The notes below the pieces were generated by a model. The model was not told the DNA's origin. It worked only from the letters and a program-made list of their open reading frames with translations, and searched no databases. Of a DNA stretch of 54,063 nucleotides, positions 31,108-49,604 are shown one piece after another. The translations under genes and the position numbers were made by a program. Source of the stretch: a virus (taxonomy: Duplodnaviria; Caudoviricetes); IMG/VR virus record IMGVR_UViG_3300033076_000675, positions 1-54,063 of that record; one strand, written 5' to 3'. The first letter of the stretch is position 1, and every line of letters begins with the position of its first letter.

Positions 31108-34079
31108 ATCAACCTTCCGTTATTCCAATTCGTAATTGGGGCACTCTCGCTAGCAGCGTTGAGACAACCGACCTTGGAACCGGGAAGCTGACGCGGGCTG
31201 TGAATTGCATTCTGCGCCCGTTTGGAGCCGTTAAAGGCATTCCTCGCTACTTTCGTCTTTGGGCTATCGGCTCTGCATCCACGGTGCAGGCAACTATGCG
31301 TGCTTTGACGTTCACGGGATTCCCTGGCGGCGTGGGTGCAACTGCGCCAGATCGTGCGACGAACAAAACGATTGCCGTTCGTGTGTATCGGCAGGGCAAA
31401 AACTTTCTGTTCTTTTACGATCTTGTAAATAGTAAAGCTCGCGGCTTGTTTTACATGGGCGACGACGGCACTTACACAAGCGGCACGTATGACTTCACCG
31501 CAGGAACGCCATTTTATGAGGTGCTTGCAGTCGGCTTGGATTCCACTGCCCGCTGGTATGGTCGCCGCATGGGGCCAATGCTCAAGATTTCAAACAACGT
31601 AGATACGCCCGTTTGCGTTCAGCTTAACCGGACCACTACTCCCGGTAAATGGCGGCTGGCGGCTTCAAACGTGGCCCCAGGAGATCCAGTCATCTCAAAG
31701 GTTCCAGCGGCTTCCCAGCTTAACACGCAGGCTTATTACACCATCTCCGGCTCTGCTGCGATTCGCATCCTGCCAGATCCAAGCAACGAATCCTTTTACA
31801 CGTATTCTGCCGTTGCTGATGTGGCGTCTGTTAGCACTGCCGCAGATCGAATCACCATTAGCGGATTCACTCCGACTGAGGGGCAACTGTTCACTATTGC
31901 AGGCGGCACGGCCCCAGGTGGGCTGACAAATTACACGTTCTATGTGATGCGGAATGTGTCTGGAACTAGCTTTCAGGTTTCCACATCGGGTTCCGGCGCA
32001 ATCATCAATCTCACATCGGTAGGAACAGGAACAAAAGTCTTTAAATCGCTTGTTCAGGCTCTCACGAATAATACCGCAGTAACTCTGGCAAGTTCTGGCA
32101 CTTTGCCCACAGGGCTAACCGCTGGCCTTTATTACCTCGTTGGCGTCAATTCTCTACAAGTTCGTCTATCGCTGACTTCTGGCGGCAGCGCAGTAGCATT
32201 TAGCGACGTGGGCGTGACCATTTCCGACCACACGATTACGCCCGTTGGCTCAGTTGTCAGGGCAGGTGGCGTAGCATTGACTTTCACGGCTGATACGATT
32301 GCCTTTCCAGGCGCGAGCGGAAACAGCAAGATTCAAGTCGCTATCCAGTATTCCAGCTACACCACGGCAATCACTTCGACGCGCTCAGGAACGGGCACAA
32401 CTACCGACCCTTATCTCTACACGCTCATCACTGGCAATAGCGCAGGCTCATCCTCAAATGATGCCATTGTCGCTTATGTGAATTCCGATACGCTAGCGGT
32501 TGGCATCCTCGAAGCTTCTACAGCGGCAGCCAACAATACCGCAGACACAGGCAGTTGGGCGGCTACGTTTCTCCTGAATGGCGTAGGCTCTGGCACGTCT
32601 GATGGCCTCACAAACCAGACTTGCAGCGTTTATTTACGTTATTGGGACCCTGGCGTTTCTCGCGTTGGCTATGAAGGCGTGTCGTCTGACAAGTCTAACG
32701 AGATCATTCTGACTGACACCGAGAACTCAGACATTTTAGTCTCTATCCCCACGGACCCAAGCGCAGAAGGCGGGCGATTCGGTTTCATCCGCGTTTATTT
32801 CCAGTTTGGAGAGGGAGCGGCGGCTATCTGGAACCTTGTCGGGGAGGTGGCAAATACGAGTGGCACAAAGACGCTGCAAATCGGCACTAATACCGTCATC
32901 GGCCAAGGCATGAGCGCGGATCAAAACCGCCCGCTGCCGTTCAAGGCCGTCTGCTTTGTTCAGAATCAAGTTTGGCATGGAGGCAGCACAACAACGCCTG
33001 ATTTGCTTTACATTTCCAAATCTGCCACGGATGACGAGATTGCGCCCGAAGGAGCCAGTATCCTCGACCCGTTTTTGATAGTGTTGCCAGAACAGACGGC
33101 AGACTTCAAAATCACGGCTTTGGATACGGATGATTACCGCCTGCACGTCCATACATCGCAAGGCGTCATCTTGCTTGATCCTCAAAATCCAGAGCAAAAT
33201 CGTCATATTCCGCAAGTGCCTGTTGGTGCGCTTAACCCGGCCTGCCTTGTCAAATGGGAGAAATCCAAGATTTACTACCTTGGCTCAGACATGGCAATTT
33301 ACGAGTTTGACGGTGCTCGTTATGGGCGTCGCAACGTCAGTTCGGCCACTAAGGAAGCGCAGCTTTACATCCTAGACCGGGCTAACCTTGACCGGGTAAG
33401 CCGTGAACCTGACCGCGTGAACGCATGGCTTGATGTGCGCTCAGAACTGCTTTTCTACCATTTCCCAGCCGCAGACAACACGCTGAACGGATTTGTTTAC
33501 GACTTTAAAAATACGGGCGTAGTGGGTGAACTCACTTACCCGAAAGTTTACGATCAGGCGGAAATGGAGCCGGAACGCACAGAGCGCATTTTCACCGATG
33601 AAGAGGGCAATCTGTTTGTCTTTAACTCGCTGGACCAAGAAGATTGGGGCGACACCCTCACAGCCACGCCAATCTTCACCACGTATTCCACCTCGACCAC
33701 TCCGCCGATTCAATACAACGGTTATGGATACGTGGACTACAACGGCAAGCGATACTATCAGGCCGTCGAAACGATCATCGAAACAGGTTTTATTGACCTG
33801 AACGACCCGACAAAATACAAAGCGTTCATGGGCGGCTTGTGGACTACGGTTCAGAACTCCCGCGCTTTAGTCGAAGTGACGTTCACAAACAAGTCAGGAC
33901 GCTCTGTAACGCGCCAGTATGGCGACATCGGCAGCAAAGGGCATAATCAGATTCACAAAGTAGCCGCCTCGCTTGGCGGCGAAGCGGTGAAGGTAAAGCT
34001 GCGGATTATCTCAGCCGAACAAGCCGGGTGGATCTTCCGCAACTTTTCGCTCATGTATCGGGCAGCGGGGATGTTTTAA
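31104..34079 (+). CDS. tail nozzle/stabilisation protein (P22 gp10/T7 gp12-like) with inserted beta domains
   Basis: 991 aa; propeller-like repeats; TLPTGLTAGLYY..LSLTSGGSAV insert; IIETGFIDL and VKLRI C-terminal motifs. Confidence 0.7.
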   Translation: MNQPSVIPIRNWGTLASSVETTDLGTGKLTRAVNCILRPFGAVKGIPRYFRLWAIGSASTVQATMRALTFTGFPGGVGATAPDRATNKTIAVRVYRQGKNFLFFYDLVNSKARGLFYMGDDGTYTSGTYDFTAGTPFYEVLAVGLDSTARWYGRRMGPMLKISNNVDTPVCVQLNRTTTPGKWRLAASNVAPGDPVISKVPAASQLNTQAYYTISGSAAIRILPDPSNESFYTYSAVADVASVSTAADRITISGFTPTEGQLFTIAGGTAPGGLTNYTFYVMRNVSGTSFQVSTSGSGAIINLTSVGTGTKVFKSLVQALTNNTAVTLASSGTLPTGLTAGLYYLVGVNSLQVRLSLTSGGSAVAFSDVGVTISDHTITPVGSVVRAGGVALTFTADTIAFPGASGNSKIQVAIQYSSYTTAITSTRSGTGTTTDPYLYTLITGNSAGSSSNDAIVAYVNSDTLAVGILEASTAAANNTADTGSWAATFLLNGVGSGTSDGLTNQTCSVYLRYWDPGVSRVGYEGVSSDKSNEIILTDTENSDILVSIPTDPSAEGGRFGFIRVYFQFGEGAAAIWNLVGEVANTSGTKTLQIGTNTVIGQGMSADQNRPLPFKAVCFVQNQVWHGGSTTTPDLLYISKSATDDEIAPEGASILDPFLIVLPEQTADFKITALDTDDYRLHVHTSQGVILLDPQNPEQNRHIPQVPVGALNPACLVKWEKSKIYYLGSDMAIYEFDGARYGRRNVSSATKEAQLYILDRANLDRVSREPDRVNAWLDVRSELLFYHFPAADNTLNGFVYDFKNTGVVGELTYPKVYDQAEMEPERTERIFTDEEGNLFVFNSLDQEDWGDTLTATPIFTTYSTSTTPPIQYNGYGYVDYNGKRYYQAVETIIETGFIDLNDPTKYKAFMGGLWTTVQNSRALVEVTFTNKSGRSVTRQYGDIGSKGHNQIHKVAASLGGEAVKVKLRIISAEQAGWIFRNFSLMYRAAGMF

Positions 34080-34518
34080 CGGAGTGGTATTTTTCCTCCC
34101 ATTCCCGCGACCCGCTTGCAGGCTCGCCCGCTTTTTTGCGTAGTTGGCGGATGTATTCGTTGGTGCATCTATGTTCTTTACTCAGGTCTGTATCACGCTT
34201 TGCCCAATCAAACACAGCATTGGTGTATTTGCCAGTTCCTTTAAGGCATTGACCTTTTTTGCGAATAGGCAAGCCAAGAATCACCATTCTTCGACGCACA
34301 GAAGAGTCCGAAACTTTTAACATTTTGGCTATTTTGTAGATTGGCTGCGTTAAATCTACACCATCAAGGCTGACTTTCTTAAACGGATCAGCTTTAATGC
34401 CTCGCTTGCACCGAGCCAAGTAAATTGGACTCAAACTGCAATTCAGTTCATTGGCAATTTCGTCCGCTGGCCGTGTGAGGTCAACGCCTGTAAAATCTAC
34501 GGGCTTTCCTTTTTTCAT
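34051..34518 (-). CDS. protein with three tandem HTH repeats
   Basis: VDLT..EIANELNCS / VDLT..KIAKMLKVS / FDWA..DLSKEHRCT repeats. Confidence 0.65.
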   Translation of the reverse strand: MKKGKPVDFTGVDLTRPADEIANELNCSLSPIYLARCKRGIKADPFKKVSLDGVDLTQPIYKIAKMLKVSDSSVRRRMVILGLPIRKKGQCLKGTGKYTNAVFDWAKRDTDLSKEHRCTNEYIRQLRKKAGEPASGSREWEEKYHSVKTSPLPDT

Positions 34519-34543
34519 CGTATCGTATTTCGTCGTTTGTTTA

Positions 34544-35023
34544 TCACTCAGGCAGCAAGATCACTCCCGCTTCCGAGCCGCTGGCATATCCAGACGCATA
34601 AAAAATCACGTCAAGGGCATGTTGCAGGCGTTCAGTAAACATATGGCGAGGCACGGCGCAAACGAATTTGTGAGAATCCTTTACTTTACGCACTTCTGCC
34701 GTAATTCGTTTGCCAGCGATGAGCGAAACAATATCCTCTAGGATGTCCTGCGGATTCATCGGCACGCCAGACGGTGTAAAAGCGTCTTTATCGGGGTTGT
34801 TTTGCACCTCGAAAGTAAATCCAATGTGATTGGAGATGCACTCAAGGGCTTTAAAATGCGCTCCTTTTGAGCCGATATATTGCCCGATATTGTCCTTGTG
34901 AGAGCGTAAAACAAGGTGTCTCTCTCCAGCCCGCGCAATCTCCATTGCCCTTGGTTTCTGAAAAGCGAGAAGCAGGCAAAGATGGCGCATTGCTTCAAAT
35001 CGTTCGTCTAGGTGGTCTGTCAT
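34544..35023 (-). CDS. KhpA-like KH-domain RNA-binding protein
   Basis: VLRSHKDNIGQYIGSKGAHFKAL matches KhpA consensus (DxGxxIGxxGxxxxA); ATG 35023. Confidence 0.7.
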   Translation of the reverse strand: MTDHLDERFEAMRHLCLLLAFQKPRAMEIARAGERHLVLRSHKDNIGQYIGSKGAHFKALECISNHIGFTFEVQNNPDKDAFTPSGVPMNPQDILEDIVSLIAGKRITAEVRKVKDSHKFVCAVPRHMFTERLQHALDVIFYASGYASGSEAGVILLPE

Positions 35024-35031
35024 TGATACTG

Positions 35032-35098
35032 AGACTACAATCTCATTAAACGATGTCAATGATTTCGTATTTGACACCCACTCAAACCCGCGCAGAAT
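35032..35098. promoter_or_regulatory. back-to-back divergent promoters
   Basis: Minus: TTGACA(35059-35054)-N16-TAGTCT; plus: TTGACA(35071-35076)-N16-CAGAAT. Confidence 0.6.
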
Positions 35099-35104
35099 AA
35101 AAGC

Positions 35105-35425
35105 TCCTTAAAGAATCTCCACGCGCCAAGAACACCTGCGAGATTCTTCCATCATACTGCAAGATAGGCCGCTATTTTCTTGGGGAGAATGGCTGACTCA
35201 AGCAAGACGGCGTGAAAAACCGACAGAGGGTGAAAATCCCTCAACCATTTCAGTTTCAGCCGGAAACCCGGTAACCAATTTACCCTCGGGGAAGCTGTTG
35301 CTTCAAAGCAGATTTGCTACCTGCTGAAAATAGAGATCATACGCGTTAATACTCTTGCGGGTTAGATTCCCGCCCCTTGGACGCTTTAACAACCCTTGTC
35401 ATCCCGGTGGCGAGGGTTTTCTTTA
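35105..35425 (+). ncRNA. putative ~320-nt ncRNA with two tRNA-like T-arm modules
   Basis: Promoter upstream and terminator downstream; GAGGG-TGAAAAT-CCCTC and GCGGG-TTAGATT-CCCGC 5-bp/7-nt arms. Confidence 0.5.
35391..35424 (+). terminator. intrinsic terminator
   Basis: AACCCTTGTCA-TCCCGG-TGGCGAGGGTT-TTCTTT. Confidence 0.7.
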
Positions 35426-35438
35426 ACCACGCATCATC

Positions 35439-35591
35439 ATGAAATTCTGCCAACTCGATAAAATAGGTCCGTCTGTGCAATGTAAAGGACGGCGCATCCA
35501 CAAGCGGCGACGCAATAAATGGATTCGCAATCAGCCTTTGAACGATGAAACACGCCCGTTGACGAATCGTTACAAGGGCTACTGGTTCTGA
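35439..35591 (+). CDS. small basic protein (50 aa)
   Basis: MKFCQLDKIG...KRRRNKWIRNQ...NRYKGYWF; below track cutoff. Confidence 0.5.
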   Translation: MKFCQLDKIGPSVQCKGRRIHKRRRNKWIRNQPLNDETRPLTNRYKGYWF

Positions 35592-35659
35592 CGGGTTTTC
35601 TTTTGACACTCCGCCCGCCATCGGTTAAACGGCGAAACCGCAAACGCGGATCATCACAC

Positions 35660-35995
35660 ATGAATCTAAACACACTACGCGACCAAGTTCACGGCCTCGC
35701 AAAAGACAAAGGCTGGCATGACGATACCATGTCTGTCATTGACTACATGGCTAAAGCGACGGCGAATCTCCACGGCGAAACAAGCGAACTATGGGAGGCC
35801 GCAAGGCGAGGAGAGCTTAACAAGCAGTGCGACAAAGCGTGTGCATTGACCTGCATTGAAGAGGAGCTTGCAGACATCATCATTCGCGCTTTGGACACCG
35901 CTGGACGCATGGGCGTGGACATCGAGGCCGCAGTATCCGCCAAGCACTTCTACAACGCTACAAGGCCGCATCGGCATGGAGGGAAACTGGCGTGA
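35660..35995 (+). CDS. MazG-like nucleotide pyrophosphohydrolase
   Basis: KGWH...LHGETSELWEAAR...EEELADIIIRALD...YNATRPHRHGGK. Confidence 0.85.
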   Translation: MNLNTLRDQVHGLAKDKGWHDDTMSVIDYMAKATANLHGETSELWEAARRGELNKQCDKACALTCIEEELADIIIRALDTAGRMGVDIEAAVSAKHFYNATRPHRHGGKLA

Positions 35996-36210
35996 GCAGT
36001 CCACTTACCGAACAAATCGGCGGCGACCACTACAAGACGCTGACGATTCAACCCGTAGAGTTCATCACGGCTAACAAACTGCCTTTTTTGGAAGGTTGCG
36101 TTATCAAGCGTGTCTGCCGACATCGCAGCAAGAATAAAGCAGAGGACATCCGCAAGGCCATCCATGAGCTAAAGTTGATTCTCAAACTTGAATACAACAC
36201 TGATGAATAA
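35992..36210 (+). CDS. DUF3310 (SaV-like) protein
   Basis: QIGGDHY..IQPVEFI..FLEGCVIK..EDIRKAIH. Confidence 0.85.
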   Translation: MSSPLTEQIGGDHYKTLTIQPVEFITANKLPFLEGCVIKRVCRHRSKNKAEDIRKAIHELKLILKLEYNTDE

Positions 36211-36281
36211 CCGTGTAACCATCGCCGCCCCATATCTGAAACCTCTTGTCGAAGCCATCAAATCCATAGACGCACGATCCT

Positions 36282-36638
36282 ATGAAAACGCCACCAAAGA
36301 AAAAGGCCGCTGCAAAAACCCCAAAGGCAAAACCCGTCGCCAAAGACACCGCTAAAGGGTGGGCTTGCCCATGCTGCCCGCGAGTCCACGCGCCCACTGT
36401 TAAAGAATGCCAATGCCGTAAAAAAACAGATGGCCAGAAAGCTCAAGATGAGGCTTTGCACCGCGAGCGCATCAAGGAGTTTATGGAACGCCTTAGAGAG
36501 GCCGAAAAGCTGCGTCCAGTGCCTCCGCCCATGCAATTCCCGCACGTTCCCTTTATCCCGAAGTGGATACCCAACCCCAACTACCCATTTAGGGAACCAA
36601 TCATGTGCAAAGCAATAGCCACTTACGGTTCCCTATGA
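36282..36638 (+). CDS. hypothetical protein with Cys cluster
   Basis: GWACPCCPRVHAPTVKECQC. Confidence 0.6.
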   Translation: MKTPPKKKAAAKTPKAKPVAKDTAKGWACPCCPRVHAPTVKECQCRKKTDGQKAQDEALHRERIKEFMERLREAEKLRPVPPPMQFPHVPFIPKWIPNPNYPFREPIMCKAIATYGSL

Positions 36639-36820
36639 CCGATCATCTCCCATCCCGCATAAAGCTCGACCCCGCCCGCGTGGAAAGCCGCAAAAGGCTG
36701 GCGCAGATGCACCCAGCAGACTGCTTTAAGGCGATGTTCGGGCTTCCTTTCACTCCGCCTACACCCTCAAATCCTCCGGCATCACAGCCCAAGTCTTGCC
36801 TGCAAGATCCCGACAAATAA
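36635..36820 (+). CDS. hypothetical protein
   Basis: ATGA-coupled ORF. Confidence 0.45.
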   Translation: MTDHLPSRIKLDPARVESRKRLAQMHPADCFKAMFGLPFTPPTPSNPPASQPKSCLQDPDK

Positions 36821-36872
36821 GGTGGCCATCGCAGCCGTCTTGATCCGCGCCTAAATGTAGAATCTCAAGGTG

Positions 36873-36925
36873 AAAGCCCTCCGGTAGATGCGTTTGACAA
36901 CCATCTTCCGTGAGGGCTTTTGCTT
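36873..36925 (+). terminator. intrinsic terminator-like hairpin
   Basis: AAAGCCCTC-CGG..CCG-TGAGGGCTTT-TGCTT. Confidence 0.65.
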
Positions 36926-36984
36926 GTCTAGTAGTCACTGTCGCAGATGGAAATCCGTATGGCATAAAAAAGAATTAAAATGGT

Positions 36985-37012
36985 TTGACGGGAGAACGGG
37001 CGCGGGTAATGT
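36985..37012 (+). promoter_or_regulatory. promoter with ACGG tandem operator-like motif (copy 1)
   Basis: TTGACGGGAGAACGGGCG..TAATGT; related copies at 41333 and 49208. Confidence 0.6.
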
Positions 37013-37048
37013 GGACTTGCCACAGGGCAAAATCAACACATCATCACT

Positions 37049-37342
37049 ATGGAAACACGCAATTACACGCCGGGGCCTTGGCATAAAAAAGCTGGCCGCG
37101 TTCTTACGACTGAACCAGAAACGTATTCTGTGGATGGACCGCCATCTGATTTTATGTTTCTTCAAAATGAAGGCGATGCAGATTTGATTGCTGCCGCTCC
37201 AGATTTGCTGGAGGCTTTGGAGCTTTGTAATGCAATCATGGAAGCTAAGATTCGTCCTGGCGAAGATGACGCGCCTACATGGCATGATGTGATTAAGCAA
37301 ACAGAAGCAGCCATTGCTAAAGCGAAAGGAGAGCAGCTATGA
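37049..37342 (+). CDS. phage accessory protein (TPGPW/AAAPDLLEAL family)
   Basis: YTPGPW...ADLIAAAPDLLEAL...AAIAKA. Confidence 0.7.
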   Translation: METRNYTPGPWHKKAGRVLTTEPETYSVDGPPSDFMFLQNEGDADLIAAAPDLLEALELCNAIMEAKIRPGEDDAPTWHDVIKQTEAAIAKAKGEQL

Positions 37343-37647
37343 AATCCAAAGACGACATCTCGCCCAACCAAATCCGTTTCGCCTACTTTGGCGACTCCCT
37401 CCGCATTGTTTACGAGGTCACGCCGGACATTGACGAGGAGATTGTGGAGATTCGCCGCGCTGAGATTTACAGCGACCTTGCCCGTTCTAAGTCTGGCTGG
37501 TTGCCAATCACATCCGGCATGGATATTTTGCTTGGTTGCCTTAACTCAGACTTTAAAGAAGCAATCCGCGAATGCACATACGTCATCTCGGAAGATGGCG
37601 AGCTTATCCGTAACTCTCGCGTCAAACAAGTTCCCGTTAACCCATAA
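37339..37647 (+). CDS. hypothetical protein
   Basis: Coupled ORF. Confidence 0.55.
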   Translation: MKSKDDISPNQIRFAYFGDSLRIVYEVTPDIDEEIVEIRRAEIYSDLARSKSGWLPITSGMDILLGCLNSDFKEAIRECTYVISEDGELIRNSRVKQVPVNP

Positions 37648-37664
37648 CCCAACATCACACTACT

Positions 37665-37895
37665 ATGCTCACCTGCAAAGAGATGCACAAAAGCACATAC
37701 TACATTGATCCAGAACTGCACACCTGGATGCGGCATCAAGCCATCATCGAAGGCGTGACTCAGAACGACATCTTTAACGACGCCGTGAGGCAGTTTAAGG
37801 AGCGAAGTGTTGCCAACAATCAACGCCTTGCTCACGTCATGGCCACCAAGAAAACAACCGCCGTTCACCCGGCTAAGAAGGGAGGGAAGAAGTGA
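37665..37895 (+). CDS. ribbon-helix-helix DNA-binding protein
   Basis: KSTYYIDPELHTWMRHQAIIEGVTQNDIFNDAVRQF. Confidence 0.65.
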   Translation: MLTCKEMHKSTYYIDPELHTWMRHQAIIEGVTQNDIFNDAVRQFKERSVANNQRLAHVMATKKTTAVHPAKKGGKK

Positions 37896-38005
37896 TGAGC
37901 GCTCTACTTGCAATCGCTACACAAATGTCTGGCTATGAATACGCCGTTGTTATTTTGGCGGCTTCCGCTGGCATATCACTATTAATTTGGGTGTGTGATA
38001 GATAA
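37895..38005 (+). CDS. 36-aa single-TM peptide
   Basis: MSALLAIATQMSGYEYAVVILAASAGISLLIWVCDR, TGATG-coupled. Confidence 0.5.
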   Translation: MSALLAIATQMSGYEYAVVILAASAGISLLIWVCDR

Positions 38006-38010
38006 TTACC

Positions 38011-38103
38011 ATGACCACCCCTCGCCAATCCATCATCGCAGGCATTGCCCTAGCCGTGCCTTTCCTCATCTTTGCTGCAATCGCTATTATCAAACACGTA
38101 TGA
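38011..38103 (+). CDS. 30-aa single-TM peptide
   Basis: MTTPRQSIIAGIALAVPFLIFAAIAIIKHV. Confidence 0.55.
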   Translation: MTTPRQSIIAGIALAVPFLIFAAIAIIKHV

Positions 38104-38303
38104 AACGAGAATCTACCACCGATAATCGCATGTCGTTTGCACTGCGGTTTAACGACCACCAGCAGACTCTAAACGAAGCCAAGCAAGCCGAGTGCAACTA
38201 CCAACCGCAACGCGCACAAGCCAAATACGGCTGGATTCCTTGGGCAGCTTTTGTCCTGGCGATGGTCGCCCTCTACGTTTTCGCTACTCACTTCAACCGC
38301 TAG
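38100..38303 (+). CDS. small protein with C-terminal TM helix
   Basis: ATGA-coupled; WIPWAAFVLAMVALYVFA. Confidence 0.55.
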   Translation: MKRESTTDNRMSFALRFNDHQQTLNEAKQAECNYQPQRAQAKYGWIPWAAFVLAMVALYVFATHFNR

Positions 38304-38315
38304 TCACCACTCATT

Positions 38316-39158
38316 ATGTCCGATCAATCTATCATCACCGCCCCTGAAACTGACATCCAAATTGCACGCGAGAACGCCGCTTTTGAGCTTCTTCAACGGC
38401 AAGCTAAGATGTTCTCGTCGTCGTCTCTTGTCCCTAAAGAGTTCATCGGCAACGTCGCCAACTGCGCTATTGGAATCAATATCGCCAAGCGTCTTGGAGC
38501 AGATCCATTTATGGTGCTGCAAAACATTGACATTATCCACGGACGCCCCAGCTTCCGCGCTACGTTCCTGATTGCAATGGTAAACGCCGCTGGCCGTTTT
38601 GAGCCGTTGCAGTTCCGCATGGAAGGCGACGAAGGCAAGCCTAACCGCTCTTGCGTGGCTTGGACGAAAAGCAAAGACGACGGTGCAACGCTGGAAGGTC
38701 CTAAGATTACCCTGGAAATGGCAAAAGCTGAGGGCTGGAGCACAAAGACGGGAAGCAAATGGATTACCATGCCAGAGCTTATGCTGCGCTACCGTGCCGC
38801 CGCGTTCTTTGCCCGCCTCTACGCGCCAGATGTGACGCTTGGACTCCAGACTGCCGAAGAGGTTCAAGACACGCTCCCGCCCCGCGATGTGACGCCATCC
38901 GCCACGACAAGTAAGCTCTTGCGTGAGGTGCCTGTGATTGAGGAAGCTCCTGCCATCACCGTAGCTCATCCGATGGTTGTATCTGAGTTCCTTTCGGAGA
39001 ACGGGCTGACTTGGGATAATGTGTCTCAAATGCTGCTAGACAATGGCATCCTTGACGACGTGCGCCCCAATCTTTCCGACGTGCCGCCAGTTGAGCTTGA
39101 GCGTATCATGTCAGCCCGCGAAGCCATCCTTAAGCAGGTGAAAGGAGGGGCGAAGTGA
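38316..39158 (+). CDS. RecT/Red-beta-like single-strand annealing protein
   Basis: SSLVPKEF.GNVANC..PFMVLQN..IHGRPS...KWITMPELMLRYRAAAFFARLYAPD. Confidence 0.75.
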   Translation: MSDQSIITAPETDIQIARENAAFELLQRQAKMFSSSSLVPKEFIGNVANCAIGINIAKRLGADPFMVLQNIDIIHGRPSFRATFLIAMVNAAGRFEPLQFRMEGDEGKPNRSCVAWTKSKDDGATLEGPKITLEMAKAEGWSTKTGSKWITMPELMLRYRAAAFFARLYAPDVTLGLQTAEEVQDTLPPRDVTPSATTSKLLREVPVIEEAPAITVAHPMVVSEFLSENGLTWDNVSQMLLDNGILDDVRPNLSDVPPVELERIMSAREAILKQVKGGAK

Positions 39159-39475
39159 TGAGTGCGCATACACCTGGGCCTTGGGAGATTGCAGATGCAA
39201 CAAACATCTTCACTAAATTAGGGGCAGCTAATGCCGCTGGCATTGAGTGCGACGCTAACGACGGATGGCTGATTGCAGATTGTTCCCCTGGTGTTTCTTT
39301 TGTGAAGGGTGAAGAAACAGAGTTAAGTTTAACTGAAACTAAGGCAAACGCCCGCCTGATCGCCGCCGCCCCTGATTTGCTGGAGGCTTTAAAGCAACTA
39401 GTGAATGCCGATGACGGTTTATCGCCAGAACTGGACGCAGCCCGCAAAGCAATCGCTAAAGCCACCCAACCATGA
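39155..39475 (+). CDS. phage accessory protein (TPGPW/AAAPDLLEAL family)
   Basis: HTPGPW...ANARLIAAAPDLLEAL. Confidence 0.7.
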   Translation: MMSAHTPGPWEIADATNIFTKLGAANAAGIECDANDGWLIADCSPGVSFVKGEETELSLTETKANARLIAAAPDLLEALKQLVNADDGLSPELDAARKAIAKATQP

Positions 39476-40671
39476 AAGACGAACGCTTTGGCGTCCCCTC
39501 AGCGTCAGAACTAGCCCGCCTTGTCGAATGTGCAAACTCGCACAAGGCACAGGCGGGCATTCCTGATGACAAGTCGAAGGATTCTTCCTTTGGCGATAAC
39601 GTCCACGCCTTTCTAAGTGGTGACAAGCCGTGGGCCGCACTCACACCGCAAGAGCAGCAGAGCGCGGAAGCCTGCGCAGACATGGAGCAATGGCACATAG
39701 ACGCCTGGAAAGAGGATGGTGAGATGACCGTCATTCGGGAGACGCGGCTTGGATTAACAGCGATGAACACGGTTGTAGAGACTGCCAAATATCCCAACGC
39801 CACGTATCAGTTCACAGGGCAGATGGATTGCCTTGTGATTCAGGGTAAGCGCGGTCTGTTGATTGACTTCAAGAGCCTACACCCTGACATTGAAGAGCCG
39901 ATTGATAACGCGCAAATGATGGGCAACGCGGTGCTTGTGGCTGAATGCTACAGGCTTGAAAGCGTCAAGGTGGTAATCATCGCCCCATTTCTGCCACGGA
40001 TGCCGCCTGCTATCTTTGACGATCGTGGTTTGCAGATGGCGCGTATCTGGCTAGCTCAAACGCTGGAAAACGAGCGCAACTCAACCGAAGCAGACCGCAA
40101 GCCGGGCAAGTGGTGCAAGCACTGCAAGGCTGCGCTAGATTGTCCTGCGCTCCATCATGGCGTTATTCAAGCCGTGGAGGTCGTTAACCCAATGGCCATC
40201 GCGGGGATGCCGGGAGATCAACAACGCTCCGCTATGTGGTCTATGGTGGCGAACCTGCCGCCTGAAAAGCATGAGGCGCACTACAACGGCCTAGCGATGA
40301 TTAAACGCTACGTGGATGTGGTAGAATCCTCATTCAAAGCCCGCGTTGAAGCTGGCGAGATGCCCGGTTATGTGGTGCAGGAGTCCCCAGGAAACCGCGA
40401 GGTTGAATGCGCGCAGAAAGCATACGAGTTACTTGCCCCCGAGGGCGTGACGCAAGAGCAGGTGCTAGCGTGCTGTAAACCGTCTGTAACGGGCTTAGAC
40501 GAGGCTCTAAGGGTGGCTAGTGGCGTGAAGAGTGTCACGGCCAAGGGCGCGGTGAAATACAACCTTACAGCCAGAGAGGCGAAGGAGAAGCTAGAGCAGA
40601 TCCTTGCGCCTGTGATGATGCGAGGGAAAAACAAGACCAAGATTGTTAAAGTGAACCAGATCGAGGAATGA
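39472..40671 (+). CDS. Cas4-like PD-(D/E)XK exonuclease (DUF2800-like)
   Basis: PSAS..C, GQMD, IDFKS, PGKWCKHC..C Fe-S cysteines; next to annealase. Confidence 0.8.
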   Translation: MKDERFGVPSASELARLVECANSHKAQAGIPDDKSKDSSFGDNVHAFLSGDKPWAALTPQEQQSAEACADMEQWHIDAWKEDGEMTVIRETRLGLTAMNTVVETAKYPNATYQFTGQMDCLVIQGKRGLLIDFKSLHPDIEEPIDNAQMMGNAVLVAECYRLESVKVVIIAPFLPRMPPAIFDDRGLQMARIWLAQTLENERNSTEADRKPGKWCKHCKAALDCPALHHGVIQAVEVVNPMAIAGMPGDQQRSAMWSMVANLPPEKHEAHYNGLAMIKRYVDVVESSFKARVEAGEMPGYVVQESPGNREVECAQKAYELLAPEGVTQEQVLACCKPSVTGLDEALRVASGVKSVTAKGAVKYNLTAREAKEKLEQILAPVMMRGKNKTKIVKVNQIEE

Positions 40672-41006
40672 TTATGAAACTGACACAAGAAGAAAAGCGA
40701 ATCAAGATTGCAGAGGTGTGCGGGTGGACGGGTATCCGTGGGAACATTGGCTACCCAAACGCGGCTACGGAAGCGGCGGAAGTTTACTACCTAATTCCCA
40801 ACTACTTCAACGATCTCAATGCCTGCCATAAAGTCTGGCAAAGCTTTACCAAAGTTCAACACGAGCAATTCAAGTGGCATCTTGTGCAGATTGTTCGTGA
40901 AGTTAAGGACTTTGACGGTCCTAAAGCATCCGTGACTTGTGCCCCTGCTTCATTGCGGGCGGAGGCTATCGGGAGAACTTTTGAAGCATGGAAAGCAGGA
41001 GAATAA
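40668..41006 (+). CDS. hypothetical phage protein
   Basis: IAEVCGW...PNYFNDLNA...RAEA motif family. Confidence 0.6.
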   Translation: MIMKLTQEEKRIKIAEVCGWTGIRGNIGYPNAATEAAEVYYLIPNYFNDLNACHKVWQSFTKVQHEQFKWHLVQIVREVKDFDGPKASVTCAPASLRAEAIGRTFEAWKAGE

Positions 41007-41009
41007 CCC

Positions 41010-41336
41010 ATGCCCAAAGTCTCAACCCTAGAGCGCAAGTTCTCTCTTATCTGGCTAGCCATCAAAGGGCCAATACTCACGCCTGAGCACGTCTTTTACC
41101 CTGGCCGCAAGTGGCGCGCAGACTTTGCACATCTCCCTAGCCGCACGCTTATCGAAGTGGAAGGAGGCGCATACGGAGGCAGGCACACGCGGCCACAGGG
41201 ATTCAAGGCAGATCTAGACAAATACTTCGCCGCCGCAATGGCAGGATGGCGCGTGATTCGCATTGGAGCGCATCAAATCAACGTGCAGACCTTGGAGCAA
41301 ATCCGCGACCTGATAAAAGATAATAAAACATCTTGA
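41010..41336 (+). CDS. DUF559/Vsr-like endonuclease (possible resolvase)
   Basis: RKWRADFA..IEVEGG..RHTR..D..KY..A...GWRVIR. Confidence 0.8.
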   Translation: MPKVSTLERKFSLIWLAIKGPILTPEHVFYPGRKWRADFAHLPSRTLIEVEGGAYGGRHTRPQGFKADLDKYFAAAMAGWRVIRIGAHQINVQTLEQIRDLIKDNKTS

Positions 41337-41360
41337 CGGTTTGACGGGAGATGCAAGAAT
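41333..41360 (+). promoter_or_regulatory. promoter with ACGG tandem motif (copy 2)
   Basis: TTGACGGTTTGACGGGAG..AAGAAT. Confidence 0.55.
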
Positions 41361-41386
41361 AAGGGGCCAACAGGCATCATCACATT

Positions 41387-41569
41387 ATGACACTTGGAAA
41401 ACTACGCGAAATGACGGCACACCTGCCAGATGAAACTGAACTATGGTATGAAGATATGAACTTTGGTGGTCGTGAAAAACCCTTTGATGAAGATCATATA
41501 TACCTGCCAACAAACGATATTTATCCCGAGATTCTTATTAGTTCAATGGTATGGACCGAAGTTGAGTAA
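41387..41569 (+). CDS. small acidic hypothetical protein
   Basis: ORF with ATCATCAC leader. Confidence 0.6.
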   Translation: MTLGKLREMTAHLPDETELWYEDMNFGGREKPFDEDHIYLPTNDIYPEILISSMVWTEVE

Positions 41570-41620
41570 ATCCACAAGGTTTGTGCATCTCACACACCAA
41601 AAATAAAACCTTAGCTTATT

Positions 41621-41914
41621 ATGAAAATTGAAATCGAAATCACAGACAGCATTACCGCCGAAATCAAAATCGGAGATCGACGCGTCAAATACGGCGCACG
41701 TAAAGGCATGTGGCAATTCATCGAAGGAGTGTCTGAGCAGGAGCTTGAAAACACCATCGAAGGCATTGTACTTTTGAAGCTGACTAACGTTCTGTCAGAC
41801 ATTATGCAGGGTTATTTGCCCGACGAGCAGAACGCCGATGACTGCTGCTGGGAACCTTGGGAGAAGCTTTCCAGAAAAGCGCAGGAAGAAGTTTATAACC
41901 GCATCAATCCGTAA
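41621..41914 (+). CDS. hypothetical protein
   Basis: ORF track; acidic. Confidence 0.6.
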   Translation: MKIEIEITDSITAEIKIGDRRVKYGARKGMWQFIEGVSEQELENTIEGIVLLKLTNVLSDIMQGYLPDEQNADDCCWEPWEKLSRKAQEEVYNRINP

Positions 41915-41995
41915 ACCACGGAGTCATCAAGATCTCCAACTAACGCAACCGGGGGCCGCGCATCCTTCACGCGGGCAACTTAAATCATCACGACA

Positions 41996-42307
41996 ATGGA
42001 TACCGAAAAAATCAAACAGATGGGCCGCGATTATTTCAAGGCGAATCCCGAGCGCTTACCATCGTATCTGGATGACAAGGCGTTTACAGAATTATGCCAG
42101 AGTCACGATTCTTTAAGGGAGGATCTTCAAGCGTCTTTATTGTGGAATGAAGGCTACAACGAAGCCTGTTACGCCGCATCCAAAGAAAGCCGCGCTATTG
42201 AGTTGCTGGGTAAACTTGTCACGGAAGTTTGGGCCTCTGAAAACAACGAGGCATGGCACCAAGCCAGCGCATTCCTGCAAGAAATCGGATGGAAACCAAA
42301 ACCTTAA
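41996..42307 (+). CDS. hypothetical protein
   Basis: ORF with ATCATCAC leader. Confidence 0.6.
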   Translation: MDTEKIKQMGRDYFKANPERLPSYLDDKAFTELCQSHDSLREDLQASLLWNEGYNEACYAASKESRAIELLGKLVTEVWASENNEAWHQASAFLQEIGWKPKP

Positions 42308-42318
42308 ATCATCACACT

Positions 42319-43143
42319 ATGTTCTACGAAGATCAACACAAGCTTGCCGCATACCTTGAGCGGCATCCAGACGCCGAATGGGAATATTGGGCTGGCAAAT
42401 GGTATGGCCACGACGACGGACGCTTTAAACGCGCAAGTGAGGCGTTTAATGCAAAATATGACATCCGCCCCGTCCTGCGCTACGGCCTCCCATCTCACCT
42501 GCAATCCGAGATCCACAATCCAGACAACCTGACCGAGGAGCAAATCTGCGAGGGCGGGAAGTATCGGGCAGTTCTCAAGAGTGAATCGGCTAGCCAGCCT
42601 CACGAGTATTGTAACAAAGGCTATCAAGAGTGGCGACGTGCATTACCGGGAGATCAGTCATTTGAAAATTACCGCACTACTTACCGCCTCCCCGCCACCG
42701 TCCCCTGGCCAGATTGGGAGCTTACAAAAGCTACGCCTTGGCCTGAGTGGCCTGATCCAGAAAACGAAAAGCCAGACCCCAAAGACGCCCGCATTGCAGA
42801 GCTTGAGAAGCAGGTTTCCGAGCTTCACGAAAGCTGCAAAAACCTGCGCGAGACTTGCAGCAAGATCGCCTCCCCCTGGCGTCGCATGTCTGAGGTGCCG
42901 ACTGAGGAGGATGCGGATAAGGATGGTTGCGTGCCTGTCATTGACTACACAGGAGCCATACGCATGTTAGTTATCGAAAGGTGGGCTGAAAGAAAGTTGG
43001 GAGGCTCTTTAGTTGCATGGATGCCCGCCCCCAAGTTCCACGGCTGGCCCGACCCTCTAGCCGACCTTCTCAAACAGCACGGTGTCGAGGCCACGCCTGA
43101 ACTCACCGCAGCCCTTACAGCATGGAAGGGGGTGGAGAAGTGA
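42319..43143 (+). CDS. mosaic hypothetical protein
   Basis: ATG 42319 after ATCATCAC; HNPDNLT, KDARIAELE coiled coil, DUF551-like VAWMP end. Confidence 0.65.
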   Translation: MFYEDQHKLAAYLERHPDAEWEYWAGKWYGHDDGRFKRASEAFNAKYDIRPVLRYGLPSHLQSEIHNPDNLTEEQICEGGKYRAVLKSESASQPHEYCNKGYQEWRRALPGDQSFENYRTTYRLPATVPWPDWELTKATPWPEWPDPENEKPDPKDARIAELEKQVSELHESCKNLRETCSKIASPWRRMSEVPTEEDADKDGCVPVIDYTGAIRMLVIERWAERKLGGSLVAWMPAPKFHGWPDPLADLLKQHGVEATPELTAALTAWKGVEK

Positions 43144-43406
43144 GTGATACTCATCCATGGTCGTGCCCATTTCCAGAAGGCTGTAATTGCGGACTTTCTG
43201 AAAAGATTCAAAACGAAGCTAAGTTTACCGCCCTCCGCGCCCACGCTGAACGGCTGGCGGAGGCTTTGGAAAAAATACAGAGGCAGCTAAATCTTGATGA
43301 TGAAGAAAGCTATGCTTCTGACGATCCTCAAGGTGCTATTGATTCTGCGCATGCAGACGCCAAAGCAGCCCTCACCCTCTACCGCGCCGAGAATCCAAAG
43401 GAGTAA
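43140..43406 (+). CDS. hypothetical protein
   Basis: GTGA-coupled. Confidence 0.55.
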   Translation: MSDTHPWSCPFPEGCNCGLSEKIQNEAKFTALRAHAERLAEALEKIQRQLNLDDEESYASDDPQGAIDSAHADAKAALTLYRAENPKE

Positions 43407-43410
43407 CGCC

Positions 43411-43743
43411 ATGACCAAATCCGAATACATCAAAGAAGCATTAGGCGAAGCTCTCTGTGAGCATTCCGACCACTACAACCTATTCACCGCAGACCAGCTT
43501 CAAGACATTGCTGACGATCTGCTTGGGGCCTTTGAATGCTGGAGTCAATATTCCGGTGAAGAGTGCATCCCGAATCCACAGATTGCCGAGATTGAGAAGC
43601 TGCAAAAGAAACTTTGTATTGAGGAGTCGAAGGTGTCGTGTCCTAACTGTGGCGGTCACGGACGCATTACCTCTTACGGAGTGAGCCATACAGCCGATTC
43701 TGAATGCCCAAAATGCAGAGGGGAGGGCAAAGTAATCCGATGA
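43411..43743 (+). CDS. protein with DnaJ-type zinc finger
   Basis: CPNCGGHG...CPKCRGEG. Confidence 0.7.
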   Translation: MTKSEYIKEALGEALCEHSDHYNLFTADQLQDIADDLLGAFECWSQYSGEECIPNPQIAEIEKLQKKLCIEESKVSCPNCGGHGRITSYGVSHTADSECPKCRGEGKVIR

Positions 43744-44129
43744 ACCACACTCCCGAATCACTCCTCGCCCTCACCAAGTCGCCAGAGGGCTTATACGAAT
43801 TGCGCTACCAAGCCGCTTTGGCGGATGGTTATTTTGAAGTTGAAAGGCGCGGCACTAAAATTGTAGGCGTTAATCCTCGCCTATTAAAGCGAGAGCATGT
43901 GCCCTTCTACCCCACCTCCCTAGACGCCATCTTCGCCGCAGAGGAGAGGCTTGGGCTGCATAAATTGTGCAAGCACGATGCCTTGTATCAGAAATGGGAG
44001 GAATTTGCAGACGACCTTATTTGCCAGTTCACAGACTTTATCAGTGCCGCTGAATTCGCCTTTCTCCCGCCACCCCTCCGCTTAATCGTTTACATCCTCA
44101 CCGCACAAGGGAAAGAACAGAACCCATGA
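43740..44129 (+). CDS. hypothetical protein
   Basis: ATGA-coupled; VPFYPTSLDA motif. Confidence 0.55.
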   Translation: MNHTPESLLALTKSPEGLYELRYQAALADGYFEVERRGTKIVGVNPRLLKREHVPFYPTSLDAIFAAEERLGLHKLCKHDALYQKWEEFADDLICQFTDFISAAEFAFLPPPLRLIVYILTAQGKEQNP

Positions 44130-44584
44130 ACACTGACACCCCACCCCAGCCAGCGCAAGACCCTTGGGTTCCTCTCGCTGATGTACTCACACTTATCAAC
44201 CATCCCAACTTCCATTGGTGCGTTGGTGGCCTCGAGGAGCTTAAATACATCGAACTCCGCATCGATACGCGGGACAACTGCTGTCTCGTCAAGACCCGAA
44301 ACGGCAAGCAGGTGGATATGGCTAAAGTCGCGAAAGCTTTGGAGTTACCATACCTGAAAGGCATGAACGAGAATCCCGCCGTCGAAGTCCACTCAAAGGA
44401 GACGATGGACGAGGTGAGGGAGGCTTTGAAAGCAGCCGAAGAGCATCTCCGACTTTACGAGGTTCAGATTGACGGCCAGTGTGGCGGCTGCCGTAGTGAT
44501 GAAGAAATGGAACAAGAAAAGCTTTGGGGTGGTGCTATTTACGCCGCTCGTTCCGCCTTCGCCAAACTCAACCCGCCTCAGTGA
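44126..44584 (+). CDS. hypothetical protein
   Basis: Coupled ORF; KYIELRIDTRD. Confidence 0.55.
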   Translation: MNTDTPPQPAQDPWVPLADVLTLINHPNFHWCVGGLEELKYIELRIDTRDNCCLVKTRNGKQVDMAKVAKALELPYLKGMNENPAVEVHSKETMDEVREALKAAEEHLRLYEVQIDGQCGGCRSDEEMEQEKLWGGAIYAARSAFAKLNPPQ

Positions 44585-44985
44585 TGAACTACACCCCCGA
44601 AGAAATAGCCGAAGCCGAACGAATCGTAAACGACATCGCAGAGCACATTGACAACCGTGAGACTCGGGCAGCTTTGCGCCAAGCTCTCTCCATCTACGCT
44701 GACAAGCTGGATGAGACGCGGGAATCAAAGCGCGCTATTCTCACTAACGCCGTGCTCTCAGAGTTGCTAACCATGCGAGAAGAGGCGGATCATGAGGCTA
44801 TTGTAGCCGAACTCAACAACCGTCTCATTGACCGCACGCAAGGACTCCTGGCCATAGCCTCTAAACACCGCCGAGGCCGTTCCGCTACCTCTTTCCGCGC
44901 TGGCTGGGAGGCCGCAATGAATCATCACTCCATCCCTTCGGCCCCCGGCTTAGAACAAGCTCTCCAACAACACCTCGAATCATGA
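44584..44985 (+). CDS. hypothetical protein
   Basis: TGATG-coupled. Confidence 0.55.
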   Translation: MNYTPEEIAEAERIVNDIAEHIDNRETRAALRQALSIYADKLDETRESKRAILTNAVLSELLTMREEADHEAIVAELNNRLIDRTQGLLAIASKHRRGRSATSFRAGWEAAMNHHSIPSAPGLEQALQQHLES

Positions 44986-45179
44986 CCAACAAACCGAAAG
45001 CAAGAACCAAGGAAGAAAAGATCGCCCGCGTGAAAGAAGTCATGCGGATGTCGAACGCAGGCTTTAACGCCAACTTCATCGAACGCCGGACAGGAACTGC
45101 CGTATGCAAGGCCCGCGAGTGGGCTAAGATGCTTGGTATTGAATGGACGGGCAAGCCAGAGAAGGGGGTGAAGGCATGA
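44982..45179 (+). CDS. small HTH-like protein
   Basis: GFNANFIERRTG..AREWAKMLG. Confidence 0.5.
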   Translation: MTNKPKARTKEEKIARVKEVMRMSNAGFNANFIERRTGTAVCKAREWAKMLGIEWTGKPEKGVKA

Positions 45180-46824: not shown

Positions 46825-46832
46825 CATTTAAC

Positions 46833-48928: not shown

Positions 48929-48952
48929 CAGGCACACCTACACGCACGCATT

Positions 48953-49565: not shown

Positions 49566-49604
49566 ACAAACCTTAGGGGCGCGGCTGTAACGCGCATTTC
49601 AATT

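Follow-up and report, generated by a model that had tools for sequence, protein, structure and literature searches.

The sequence under study, referred to below as the window, is the complete 54-kb record (54,063 nt) of a phage. Rightward genes occupy 3674 to 34079 and resume at 35439; flanked by these two rightward runs, a KH gene (34544..35023, minus strand) and an HTH gene (34051..34518, minus strand) thus form an island of leftward genes at the junction of late and early regions, as the earlier note had described. Divergent from the KH gene lies a candidate non-coding RNA of ~320 nt (35105..35424, plus strand), delimited from a promoter, a terminator and a predicted fold; its 5' end was set from the promoter.

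The back-to-back TTGACA-N16 promoters of the earlier note were both located. The plus-strand element of the non-coding unit (TTGACA-N16-CAGAAT, 35071..35098) was found by motif scan with 10 of 12 matches; its hexamers, TTGACA (35071-35076) and CAGAAT (35093-35098), are separated by a 16-nt spacer, and it ranks second among the promoter-like sites in 35000-54063. The same hexamers with the same spacing are found in the related sequence L002, L003 has TTGACG, and contigs X2 and X3 keep the promoter as far as 35098. The minus-strand element (TTGACA-N16-TAGTCT, 35032..35059) was read from the sequence: TTGACA runs from 35059 to 35054 and TAGTCT from 35037 to 35032, also with a 16-nt spacer, 8 nt before the KH-gene ATG at 35023. 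It is absent from the scan list because its -10 hexamer shares just 3 of 6 positions with TATAAT. Neither -10 hexamer is a good one. The scan found 2 promoter-like motifs against 1.9 expected by chance, so the case for both promoters comes from conservation. The homologue P0016 was called with a read-through N-terminus that retains residues encoded by both minus-strand hexamers, which suggests that the minus-strand promoter is conserved too. With its ATG 8 nt after the -10, the predicted KH-gene mRNA would be leaderless or near-leaderless.

The KH and HTH proteins

The KH gene encodes a 159-aa protein, classified as tandem type-II KH-like from Pfam searches, homologue alignment, AlphaFold2 prediction and structure comparison. 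The start methionine is the same in 6 of 7 aligned homologues; in P0016 the called start lies 30 residues upstream of it. A KhpA/B-type KH domain that includes a GSKG loop spans residues 1-75, and residues 88-159 are KH-like without a GXXG. The loop, in the context IGSKG, occupies residues 51-54 (GSKG), and G51 and G54 are invariant in all eight sequences; across the family alignment the invariant residues are N45, I46, G47, G51 and G54. Pfam KH_KhpA-B (PF13083) was matched at E ≤ 0.1 by each of the eight proteins of the family, with 5.9e-8 as the lowest value, the window's own protein falling under the gathering cut-off of 32.1 bits (17.6 bits, E 0.0037; 17.3 bits in the genome search). A phmmer search against 1.84 billion representatives gave 13 matches at E ≤ 0.001, namely three full-length relatives and ten long multi-KH proteins aligned only within query residues ~19-74. 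All 20 substitutions listed for the KH gene in relatives are synonymous, as under purifying selection.

The AlphaFold2 model (pLDDT 89.1, pTM 0.85) bears on the tandem KH fold that the earlier note had proposed to check in this way, and it contains two type-II KH-like halves. The order of elements is H-E-E-H-H-E followed by H-E-E-H-E. The N-terminal half (H5-19, E27-33, E36-41, H47-50, H55-67, E70-73) has the type-II order alpha-beta-beta-alpha-alpha-beta; the C-terminal half is alpha-beta-beta-alpha-beta and has a single long helix (131-147) where the helix-GXXG-helix would stand. In structure comparison the N-terminal half matched archaeal uS3 (Z 7.0, rmsd 2.6, 74 residues aligned) and Era (Z 6.1-6.5; residues 1-79 against uS3/Era KH domains, Z 6-7), the C-terminal half matched KhpB/EloR 9lrg (Z 6.8, rmsd 3.3, 70 aligned), and the top matches, at Z 7.9-8.1, were to LarE (C-terminal domain), which is not a KH protein; according to the tool's own warning, Z below 8 may reflect a common arrangement. 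Foldseek against the PDB returned no match at E ≤ 0.001. The PF13083 signal, the invariant GSKG and the model together uphold the claim of an intact GxxG loop followed by a degenerate second half, and support a predicted KhpA/B-type KH domain joined to a degenerate KH-like one.

The closest known proteins are KhpA and KhpB (EloR, Jag; PF13083), which share with the N-terminal half the type-II order and the GXXG, and with the whole family the profile match; the C-terminal half can be superposed on the KH domain of KhpB. Unlike KhpA, which has ~80 aa and pairs with KhpB, the phage protein is one 159-aa chain of two halves. It further differs from both in its GXXG-less second half, in the sub-threshold score of the window's protein, in being phage-encoded and in carrying neither a Jag-N nor an R3H domain; here it is known from sequence and model. 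NusA (KH1-KH2), and short archaeal NusA in particular, likewise carries two type-II KH-like domains in succession on a single chain. Archaeal NusA-like models gave the best two-domain Atlas row (TM 0.39 by query, 0.42 by row, 98 aligned), and NusA rows occur among the Foldseek and VIA-align results. These TM-scores are low, however, and no significant sequence match was obtained (best NusA E 0.4). A NusA-type tandem KH was rejected on this E value, on the second half without GXXG and on the missing further domains (NusA N-terminal or S1).

The HTH gene encodes a 155-aa protein, assigned by AlphaFold2 and homologue searches. Its model (pLDDT 76) has three two-helix HTH units (helices 18-25/29-38, 60-67/71-80 and 109-116/120-129), in agreement with the triple-HTH description of the earlier note. 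Pfam gave weak HTH matches only, all under the cut-off, and the nearest Atlas clusters are multi-HTH. Six homologues besides the window's own protein were found (47-74% identity), and the C-terminal tail is almost invariant. The last 29 nt of the gene overlap a convergent tail-fibre-like gene. Within the 3' end of that gene, 64 nt downstream of the HTH stop, is a terminator-like GC hairpin on the minus strand (33964..33987; 9 pairs, 7 of them G-C, with a weak T-run), possibly the end of the leftward operon; it was also the sole Rfam match at E < 1 (CC0196), scoring 22 bits where the gathering score is 35.

HTH and KH homologues come from contigs of equal length (62639, 63061 and 11002 nt), a single 1835-nt contig (X3) holds the end of the HTH gene together with the KH gene, and the HTH homologue P0022 is on a contig also of 1835 nt. 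KH and HTH thus appear, from these sequence comparisons, to be real genes and a conserved pair. The combination is a rare phage gene pair.

The rightward unit and the start of the early module

The RNA unit was read in three independent versions and consists of conserved islands between unalignable spacers of differing length. In the window its fold z-score is -3.0 on the plus strand (0 of 100 shuffles as good) against -1.27 on the minus strand; L003 gave -5.0 (0 of 200 shuffles as good) and L002 only -1.59 (4 of 100). The core is a 35-nt block (35247..35281, plus strand) that is the same in the three versions bar one C/U difference. It comprises a hairpin, GCCGG-AAAC-CCGGY, followed by AACCAAUUU, occurs once in the window and is not a palindrome. 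One of the five hairpin pairs is G-C in two versions and G-U in the other; none of the five consensus pairs was changed on both sides. The unit ends in an intrinsic terminator, t1 (35391..35424, plus strand), with a 12-pair stem that includes three G-U pairs (35391-35418; -16.7 kcal/mol, z -3.5) and a U-run. Terminator t1 is the strongest in the right 19 kb, heading the table of terminators in 35000-54063, and is 97% identical in L003, where a T-to-C change turns a G-U into a G-C pair. Since the variable positions in core and t1 keep their pairing, G-C to G-U in one and G-U to G-C in the other, they fit an RNA of the plus strand only.

No ORF is conserved across the three versions. Rfam 15 (4227 families) gave no match at gathering thresholds over the whole window, and at E up to 10 only chance-level rows were obtained for the regions of the window, L002 and L003. 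No RNA run containing the stretch was among those listed. By sequence prediction, the features of a small-RNA gene are present: own promoter, intrinsic terminator, no conserved ORF and a conserved core. The ~320-nt terminator-bounded unit of the earlier note thus stands, and it is probably a non-coding RNA running from promoter to terminator. As a class, phage small RNAs resemble it in having a promoter, a short non-coding stretch with a conserved core and a strong terminator, and in lying at the start of the early region; among phage-encoded small RNAs with their own promoter and intrinsic terminator, one example is that of bioRxiv 10.1101/2024.10.31.621285. The candidate differs from the class in that it has no Rfam match and that a target sought in the phage was not found.

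Beyond t1 is a 50-aa basic protein gene (35439..35591, plus strand), recognized from its homologue P0025 (86% identity, equal length) and its substitution pattern, all six listed substitutions being synonymous. This conserved gene lies inside the supposedly non-coding gap. The protein has 14 K/R and 3 D/E residues and no family match. The gene sits in an optional 179-nt segment bounded by an 11-nt direct repeat (D13); X3 skips 35414-35592, the segment that holds it, and no match was found in L002 or L003 in a search run without a positive control. It has no promoter-like site of its own and is placed between t1 and a second terminator-like hairpin with U-run, t2 (35554..35603, plus strand), detected by folding and fused to the conserved early block. 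A hairpin precedes the same GGGUUUUCUUUU in all three versions, and the stems are unrelated (-15, -23.3 and -21.8 kcal/mol).

Version comparison defined a near-invariant block (35593..35659, plus strand) made up of the U-run, a -35-like TTGACAC with a poor -10, and the leader that precedes the first early gene. In this leader, a hairpin CCGC-AAAC-GCGG (35638-35649) ends 10 nt before the ATG; the core and leader hairpins are the only two matches in 54 kb to an AAAC-loop pattern (0.13 expected), a pattern that was written after both hairpins had been seen. The first gene of the early module encodes a MazG-like pyrophosphatase (35660..35995, plus strand; phrog_3301, E 1.6e-22), 97-98% identical in two other phage contigs, and a module starting with this gene is common to the window, L002 and L003.

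Relationship between the KH gene and the RNA unit

In two complete relatives, G001 (99% complete) and G002 (100%), the promoter, core and terminator of the RNA unit are found directly upstream of the same MazG-like gene. The KH family profile gave no match in either genome at E ≤ 1; as positive control, the window's own genome was matched at E 7e-87. Since the unit is present in both complete relatives without KH, it belongs to the early-gene module and not to the KH cassette, and the point where homology of the window to L002 breaks off, at the RNA-unit promoter, likewise makes it part of that module. In the three KH-bearing versions (window, X2 and X3) the unit always adjoins the KH gene, so that the two may be functionally linked where both occur; these versions are all close relatives, and their adjacency is therefore not independent evidence. 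On these sequence comparisons, the KH gene and the RNA unit are neighbours rather than a proven pair.

The reading preferred here, to which a probability of roughly 0.55 is given, is that an accessory KH–HTH operon and an RNA unit of the early module are two separate things placed back to back. As to binding, transcription and function, we infer that the leftward operon would start at its sigma-70-like promoter as a leaderless mRNA. The C-terminal half of the KH protein probably packs on the N-terminal half as a dimer partner would, and the protein may bind single-stranded RNA (single-stranded DNA being less likely); the HTH protein may bind DNA, perhaps in the region of the divergent promoters. 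The two proteins would make a small regulatory cassette carried by only some phages of the group. The core would offer a short GC hairpin, with AAAC as its loop, next to a single-stranded tail; through this core the ~320-nt unit could act either as a small RNA of the phage or as a leader RNA that is terminated, independently of the KH protein. In this phage, read-through of t1 would also express the 50-aa basic protein.

Alternative explanations

The earlier note had proposed a cognate riboregulatory pair, in which the KH protein binds the divergent RNA and the two together would control translation of the phage or titrate a host KhpB. The divergent layout, the intact GXXG loop and the adjacency in all KH-bearing versions fit this proposal, but with the RNA unit retained in both complete KH-less relatives, the homology break tying it to the early module and the KH-bearing versions not being independent, it has become rather improbable. 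Doubtful, too, is that the unit is no free small RNA but serves the early operon in cis, as a leader or anti-termination region; the core would then be a nut-like hairpin on transcripts from the 35071 promoter, and a factor such as the 50-aa arginine-rich protein would carry these transcripts through t1 and t2. Lambda N is an arginine-rich protein that acts with a cognate leader hairpin, nut, in the read-through of terminators, and the loop of lambda boxB has five bases and is GNRA-like. The lambda pL/nutL/N leader resembles the present region in its promoter, its long leader with a small conserved hairpin, its basic-protein gene and its terminators before the early genes, and lambda cI, as expressed from PRM, is likewise a regulator gene that is divergent and leaderless. 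In all three versions the promoter is followed by the conserved hairpin, the terminator(s) and then the early genes, the position of the promoterless 50-aa gene between t1 and t2 is as expected, and the post-hoc AAAC pattern recurs in the leader of the first early gene. However, there is no homology to the lambda region, the hairpin loop of this phage is one of four bases, neither a repressor nor an integrase was recognized, and the small basic protein, itself without a family match, is encoded by a gene that is optional among relatives, whereas the core is invariant in all. The conserved TTGACAC right after t2 also points to a separate start for the early genes.

The conserved islands could instead act as DNA, for instance as operators bound by the HTH protein or another regulator or as recombination linkers between mosaic modules, without a functional RNA. 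Short islands amid unalignable spacers, at a junction where phages swap modules, would suit such elements, as would the lack of compensatory covariation. This is nevertheless quite unlikely given the plus-strand pairing of the variable positions, the rank of t1 in the terminator table, the folding that beats shuffles on the plus strand and not on the minus strand, and a core that is non-palindromic and occurs once. In a further alternative the cassette would act on DNA rather than RNA, the KH-like protein binding single-stranded DNA or serving as a DciA-like helicase-loading adaptor and the HTH protein binding an origin or another DNA site. Structure comparison also returned the KH-like domain of DciA (8a3v_D, Z 5.5; 7ykm_A, Z 4.6), a passage in PMC11261784 describes KH domains as able to bind single-stranded DNA, and the phage has its own DnaB-like helicase. 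We regard this as very unlikely, because the DciA rows rank below uS3, Era and KhpB, the GXXG loop and the KH_KhpA-B signal indicate a classical KH, and two complete relatives that share the replication genes do without the cassette; the helicase gene (47489-48928) is 12 kb away.

The KH cassette and its genomic setting

The virus record is a whole one (54,063 bases, completeness rating 100%). According to ORF lists and PHROG and Pfam scans, a rightward block of genes (3674-34079) codes for an SU10-like portal, a major head protein, an endolysin, a tail assembly chaperone and a 991-aa tail-fibre-like protein. The second block, likewise rightward, starts near 35439, reaches the end of the record and codes for a MazG-like pyrophosphatase, DUF3310, RecT, an exonuclease, HNH endonucleases, a DnaB-like helicase and the small terminase subunit. 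The only leftward genes at the junction of the blocks are those for a 159-residue KH protein (34544-35023) and a 155-residue HTH protein (34051-34518), together termed the KH cassette. Neither an integrase nor a repressor was recognised in the window by Pfam (46 other ORFs) or PHROGs (42 ORFs). A 2761-aa ORF (5427-13712, + strand), directly before the SU10-like portal gene, had no PHROG match at E <= 1e-5. BLASTN of 33900-35700 returned no relatives of the region from the phage collection, and no RNA run containing it was among the sequencing runs listed.

Exhaustive phmmer searching of 1.84 billion representatives with the KH protein returned 13 proteins at E <= 0.001; three were full-length relatives (78, 46 and 28% identity) and ten were long multi-KH proteins, aligned only within residues ~19-74. 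Further relatives (95, 72, 69 and 60% identity) were found by a word-indexed search. As judged from these sequence searches the family is rare, with about eight members among billions of sequences. The phage collection gave no tblastn match to the KH protein or to two of its homologues (P0002 and P0004), and relatives were unconfirmed in viral_contigs, metagenome_contigs and genome_contigs with the single protein, an alignment (A1), P0004 or P0002 as query. All eight family members matched the Pfam family KH_KhpA-B at E <= 0.1 (best 5.9e-8); the match of the window's own protein was sub-threshold (17.6 bits, cut-off 32.1). The start methionine is common to six of seven homologues, the remaining one (P0016) being called 30 residues further upstream. 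The GXXG loop, described as intact in the earlier note, is present as GSKG in the N-terminal half, and N45, I46, G47, G51 and G54 are invariant. In a substitution table holding 41 of the 102 differences over the whole 1.7-kb stretch, all 20 substitutions of the KH gene listed for related contigs were synonymous; at the sequence level, purifying selection on this gene is clear.

The KH protein was modelled with AlphaFold2 on the family alignment (pLDDT 89.1, pTM 0.85). The tandem KH folds expected from the earlier note were recovered in the model, as a type-II KH half (H-E-E-H-H-E) followed by a degenerate, KH-like half (H-E-E-H-E) with one long helix and no GXXG. Residues 1-79 aligned with archaeal uS3 (Z 7.0) and Era (Z 6.1-6.5), and residues 88-159 with KhpB/EloR (Z 6.8), the Jag-like protein 3gku (Z 5.6) and archaeal NusA (Z 5.8); the top rows were those of the LarE C-terminal domain (Z 7.9-8.1), which alone reached Z 8, and middling Z-scores are common according to the warning of the structure-comparison tool. 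Foldseek of the model against the PDB gave no match at E <= 0.001. Over its whole length the modelled protein matched one predicted viral structure (A0A6J5PF67; TM 0.73, 16% identity), and viral KH_2 clusters of ~92 aa in the Atlas (scores 0.80-0.81) were taken as leads only. The protein is predicted to work like KhpA/KhpB or a NusA-type KH module, and differs from KhpA in missing the Pfam cut-off and in having two halves, KhpA being a single-domain protein. Phage KH proteins are barely described: none of the papers listed in a literature search reported a phage-encoded KH protein in its title or the start of its abstract, and the passages with the word "phage" in a 2024 KH review concern only NusA and lambda (PMC11261784).

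For the HTH protein, AlphaFold2 (pLDDT 76, pTM 0.35) gave three two-helix units and one further helix, in keeping with the triple-HTH gene noted beside the KH gene. Pfam matches were weak and confined to the middle unit; the nearest Atlas clusters were multi-HTH proteins (scores 0.91-0.92, 185-194 shared features). Foldseek against the PDB gave nothing at E < 0.1, and there was no match to the protein in viral_contigs. Besides the window's own, six homologues were found (47-74% identity) with a nearly invariant C-terminal tail; the final ~45 residues (34051-34190, - strand) are almost unchanged even at ~50% identity. The last 29 nt of the gene overlap the convergent tail-fibre-like gene. The KH and HTH genes seem to travel together, because their homologues lie on contigs of equal size (62639, 63061 and 11002 bases) and because, in a KH-bearing close relative (X3), one 1835-nt contig carries both the end of the HTH gene and the KH gene; the contig of the HTH homologue P0022 is equally long.

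Promoter-like elements, predicted terminator and conserved core of the candidate RNA unit

The back-to-back TTGACA-N16 promoters proposed earlier were located on both strands. The + strand element, TTGACA-N16-CAGAAT (35071-35098), has 10/12 matches and ranks second among promoter-like sites of 35000-54063. On the - strand, TTGACA (35059 to 35054) is followed by 16 nt, TAGTCT, 8 nt and the ATG at 35023, a spacing that fits a leaderless start of the KH gene; the -10 hexamer is poor (3/6 consensus positions) and the element is absent from the list of the promoter scan. The motifs alone prove little, since two were found in the region where 1.9 were expected. The promoter reading gains weight because hexamers and spacing are conserved in relatives. 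Both are identical to the + strand element in L002, a phage contig with the RNA unit, and the -35 is TTGACG in another, L003. Contigs of the close relatives X2 and X3 are alignable up to 35098 and diverge thereafter, and the read-through N-terminus of P0016 keeps, at equal spacing, the amino acids for which the two - strand hexamers code. Within the right 19 kb, the highest-ranking sigma-70-like site (TTGACA-N18-TAAAAT, 51565-51594, + strand, 11/12) is found a short way before a small + strand ORF (51616-51837).

The candidate RNA unit (35105-35424, + strand, ~320 nt) ends in a predicted terminator, t1 (35391-35418), of 12 pairs and a U-run, which heads the terminator table for 35000-54063. 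Folding of 35100-35430 gave z -3.0 on the + strand (0/100 shuffles as good) and z -1.27 on the - strand (9/100). Searching with the MazG-like protein identified L002 and L003, whose proteins are 97-98% identical; L006 duplicates the sequence of L003, and the comparison of the RNA unit covers three independent versions. The fold z was -5.0 in L003 (0/200 as good) and -1.59 in L002 (4/100). A 35-nt core (35247-35281) differs by one C/U among the three versions and is otherwise identical; t1 is 97% identical in L003, and a near-invariant block extends in L002 and L003 from the U-run via TTGACAC to the MazG-like ATG. The spacers between these islands are unalignable and of differing length (in X3, 107 other letters versus 145, and 239 versus 103).

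In the three versions, reading frames that cross the core are not conserved outside it, whichever strand is read. A single consensus structure emerged, the 5-pair hairpin GCCGG-AAAC-CCGGY, whose one variable position pairs as G-U in the window and as G-C in the other two versions; in t1 of L003 a T to C change turns a G-U pair into G-C, and at the variable positions of both hairpins pairing is kept on the + strand only. By its sequence features the stretch looks like a non-coding unit bounded by promoter and terminator, as first suspected. It may be a new phage RNA, whose core is invariant and which falls into no Rfam family: the regions of the window, L002 and L003 had no Rfam match, and the core motif was found in viral_contigs only in the two known relatives, in metagenome_contigs as the same sequence again, and nowhere in genome_contigs. 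Among ~21,600 windows of the phage, the best duplex with the core (-29 kcal/mol; mean -15, sd 4) does not stand out. The complement of the core's single-stranded tail is no commoner than chance, and TTGACAC is not a phage-wide motif (5 matches, 6.2 expected). The -35 element comes immediately after the preceding + strand lysis gene in L002 (4975-5550) and L003 (4881-5426); these genes differ, and by eye on the translations, not by family search, one looks peptidase-type and the other like an amidase. The boundary between lysis gene and RNA unit is a mosaic junction.

Occurrence of the RNA unit without the KH gene in two relatives

The KH family profile, which recovered the window's own gene at E 7e-87 as a positive control, had no match at E <= 1 in the full-length records behind L002 (99% complete) and L003 (100%, terminal repeats); therefore the RNA unit exists without the KH protein. 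On sequence comparison the RNA unit is assigned to the early module, since the window and L002 are homologous from its promoter onwards. The cassette adjoins the RNA unit in the window, X2 and X3, and these three are close relatives. The pairing of the KH protein with a cognate RNA, to which neighbourhood had pointed, was not borne out, and the practical outcome is negative in that comparison of relatives did not repeat the hint of a protein-RNA system.

The supposed non-coding gap after t1 holds an ORF (35439-35591, + strand) for a 50-aa protein with 14 K/R and 3 D/E. The six substitutions listed for it in X2 contigs are all synonymous, and the 11002-base contig mentioned above encodes a homologue that is just as long (86% identity); the ORF looks like a real gene by its sequence, and its product had no family match. 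The ORF is part of a 179-nt segment bordered on both sides by copies of an 11-nt direct repeat (D13; 35414-35424 and 35593-35603), each copy being the U-run after a terminator stem. Because the repeat flanks a segment that is missing from X3, gain or loss by recombination between the copies is suggested. Ahead of the early block, each of the three versions has a second terminator-like hairpin and U-run (t2), whose stem sequences are unrelated between versions.

Proposed roles and alternative readings

We think that the KH and HTH genes form an accessory regulatory operon. The KH protein is predicted to bind single-stranded nucleic acid, most likely RNA, its modelled second half substituting for a dimer partner, and the HTH protein is predicted to bind DNA. 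For action on host or phage RNA, a single-chain KH "pseudo-dimer" of this kind would give a phage a compact tool. The RNA unit is a separate early-module element and could be either a small RNA or a terminated leader, acting through its invariant core; it could bear on early-gene timing in this phage group because it is located where early transcription is set.

Several alternatives were weighed against this reading. That the KH protein and the RNA unit are a true protein-RNA pair is favoured by their adjacency in the close relatives and disfavoured by the KH-profile blank in L002 and L003. The RNA unit might instead be a nut-like anti-termination leader served by the 50-aa basic protein; the position of its gene between t1 and t2 speaks for this, and against it stand the segment missing from X3 and the lack of a match to the protein in L002 or L003, a search made with a short query and no positive control. 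The conserved islands might be DNA-level elements only, a reading disfavoured by the one-strand pairing of the core hairpin and t1. The KH cassette might also act on DNA, a view disfavoured by the GSKG loop and the KH_KhpA-B signal of the KH protein.

The AAAC-loop hairpin pattern CCGNAAACNCGG occurs at two sites in 54 kb (0.13 expected), one in the core (35260-35271, + strand) and the other in the start region of the first early gene, ending 10 nt before the MazG-like ATG (35638-35649, + strand). Both are kept in L002 and L003. Because the pattern was written after both sites were seen, the count serves only as a description. It is improbable, though conceivable, that the AAAC-loop hairpins are shared sites of one RNA-binding factor, the upstream RNA being a decoy or loading site that sets early-operon translation or read-through. 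Such a factor could be the tandem-KH protein, the 50-aa arginine-rich protein or a host protein; if true, the phage would carry a protein-titrating RNA circuit with optional input from the KH protein. On the KH coding strand, 22 nt (34831-34852) are 73% like the first bases of the RNA unit (35100-35121; inverted repeat I2); the two RNAs would be similar there, not complementary, and the resemblance is probably due to chance.
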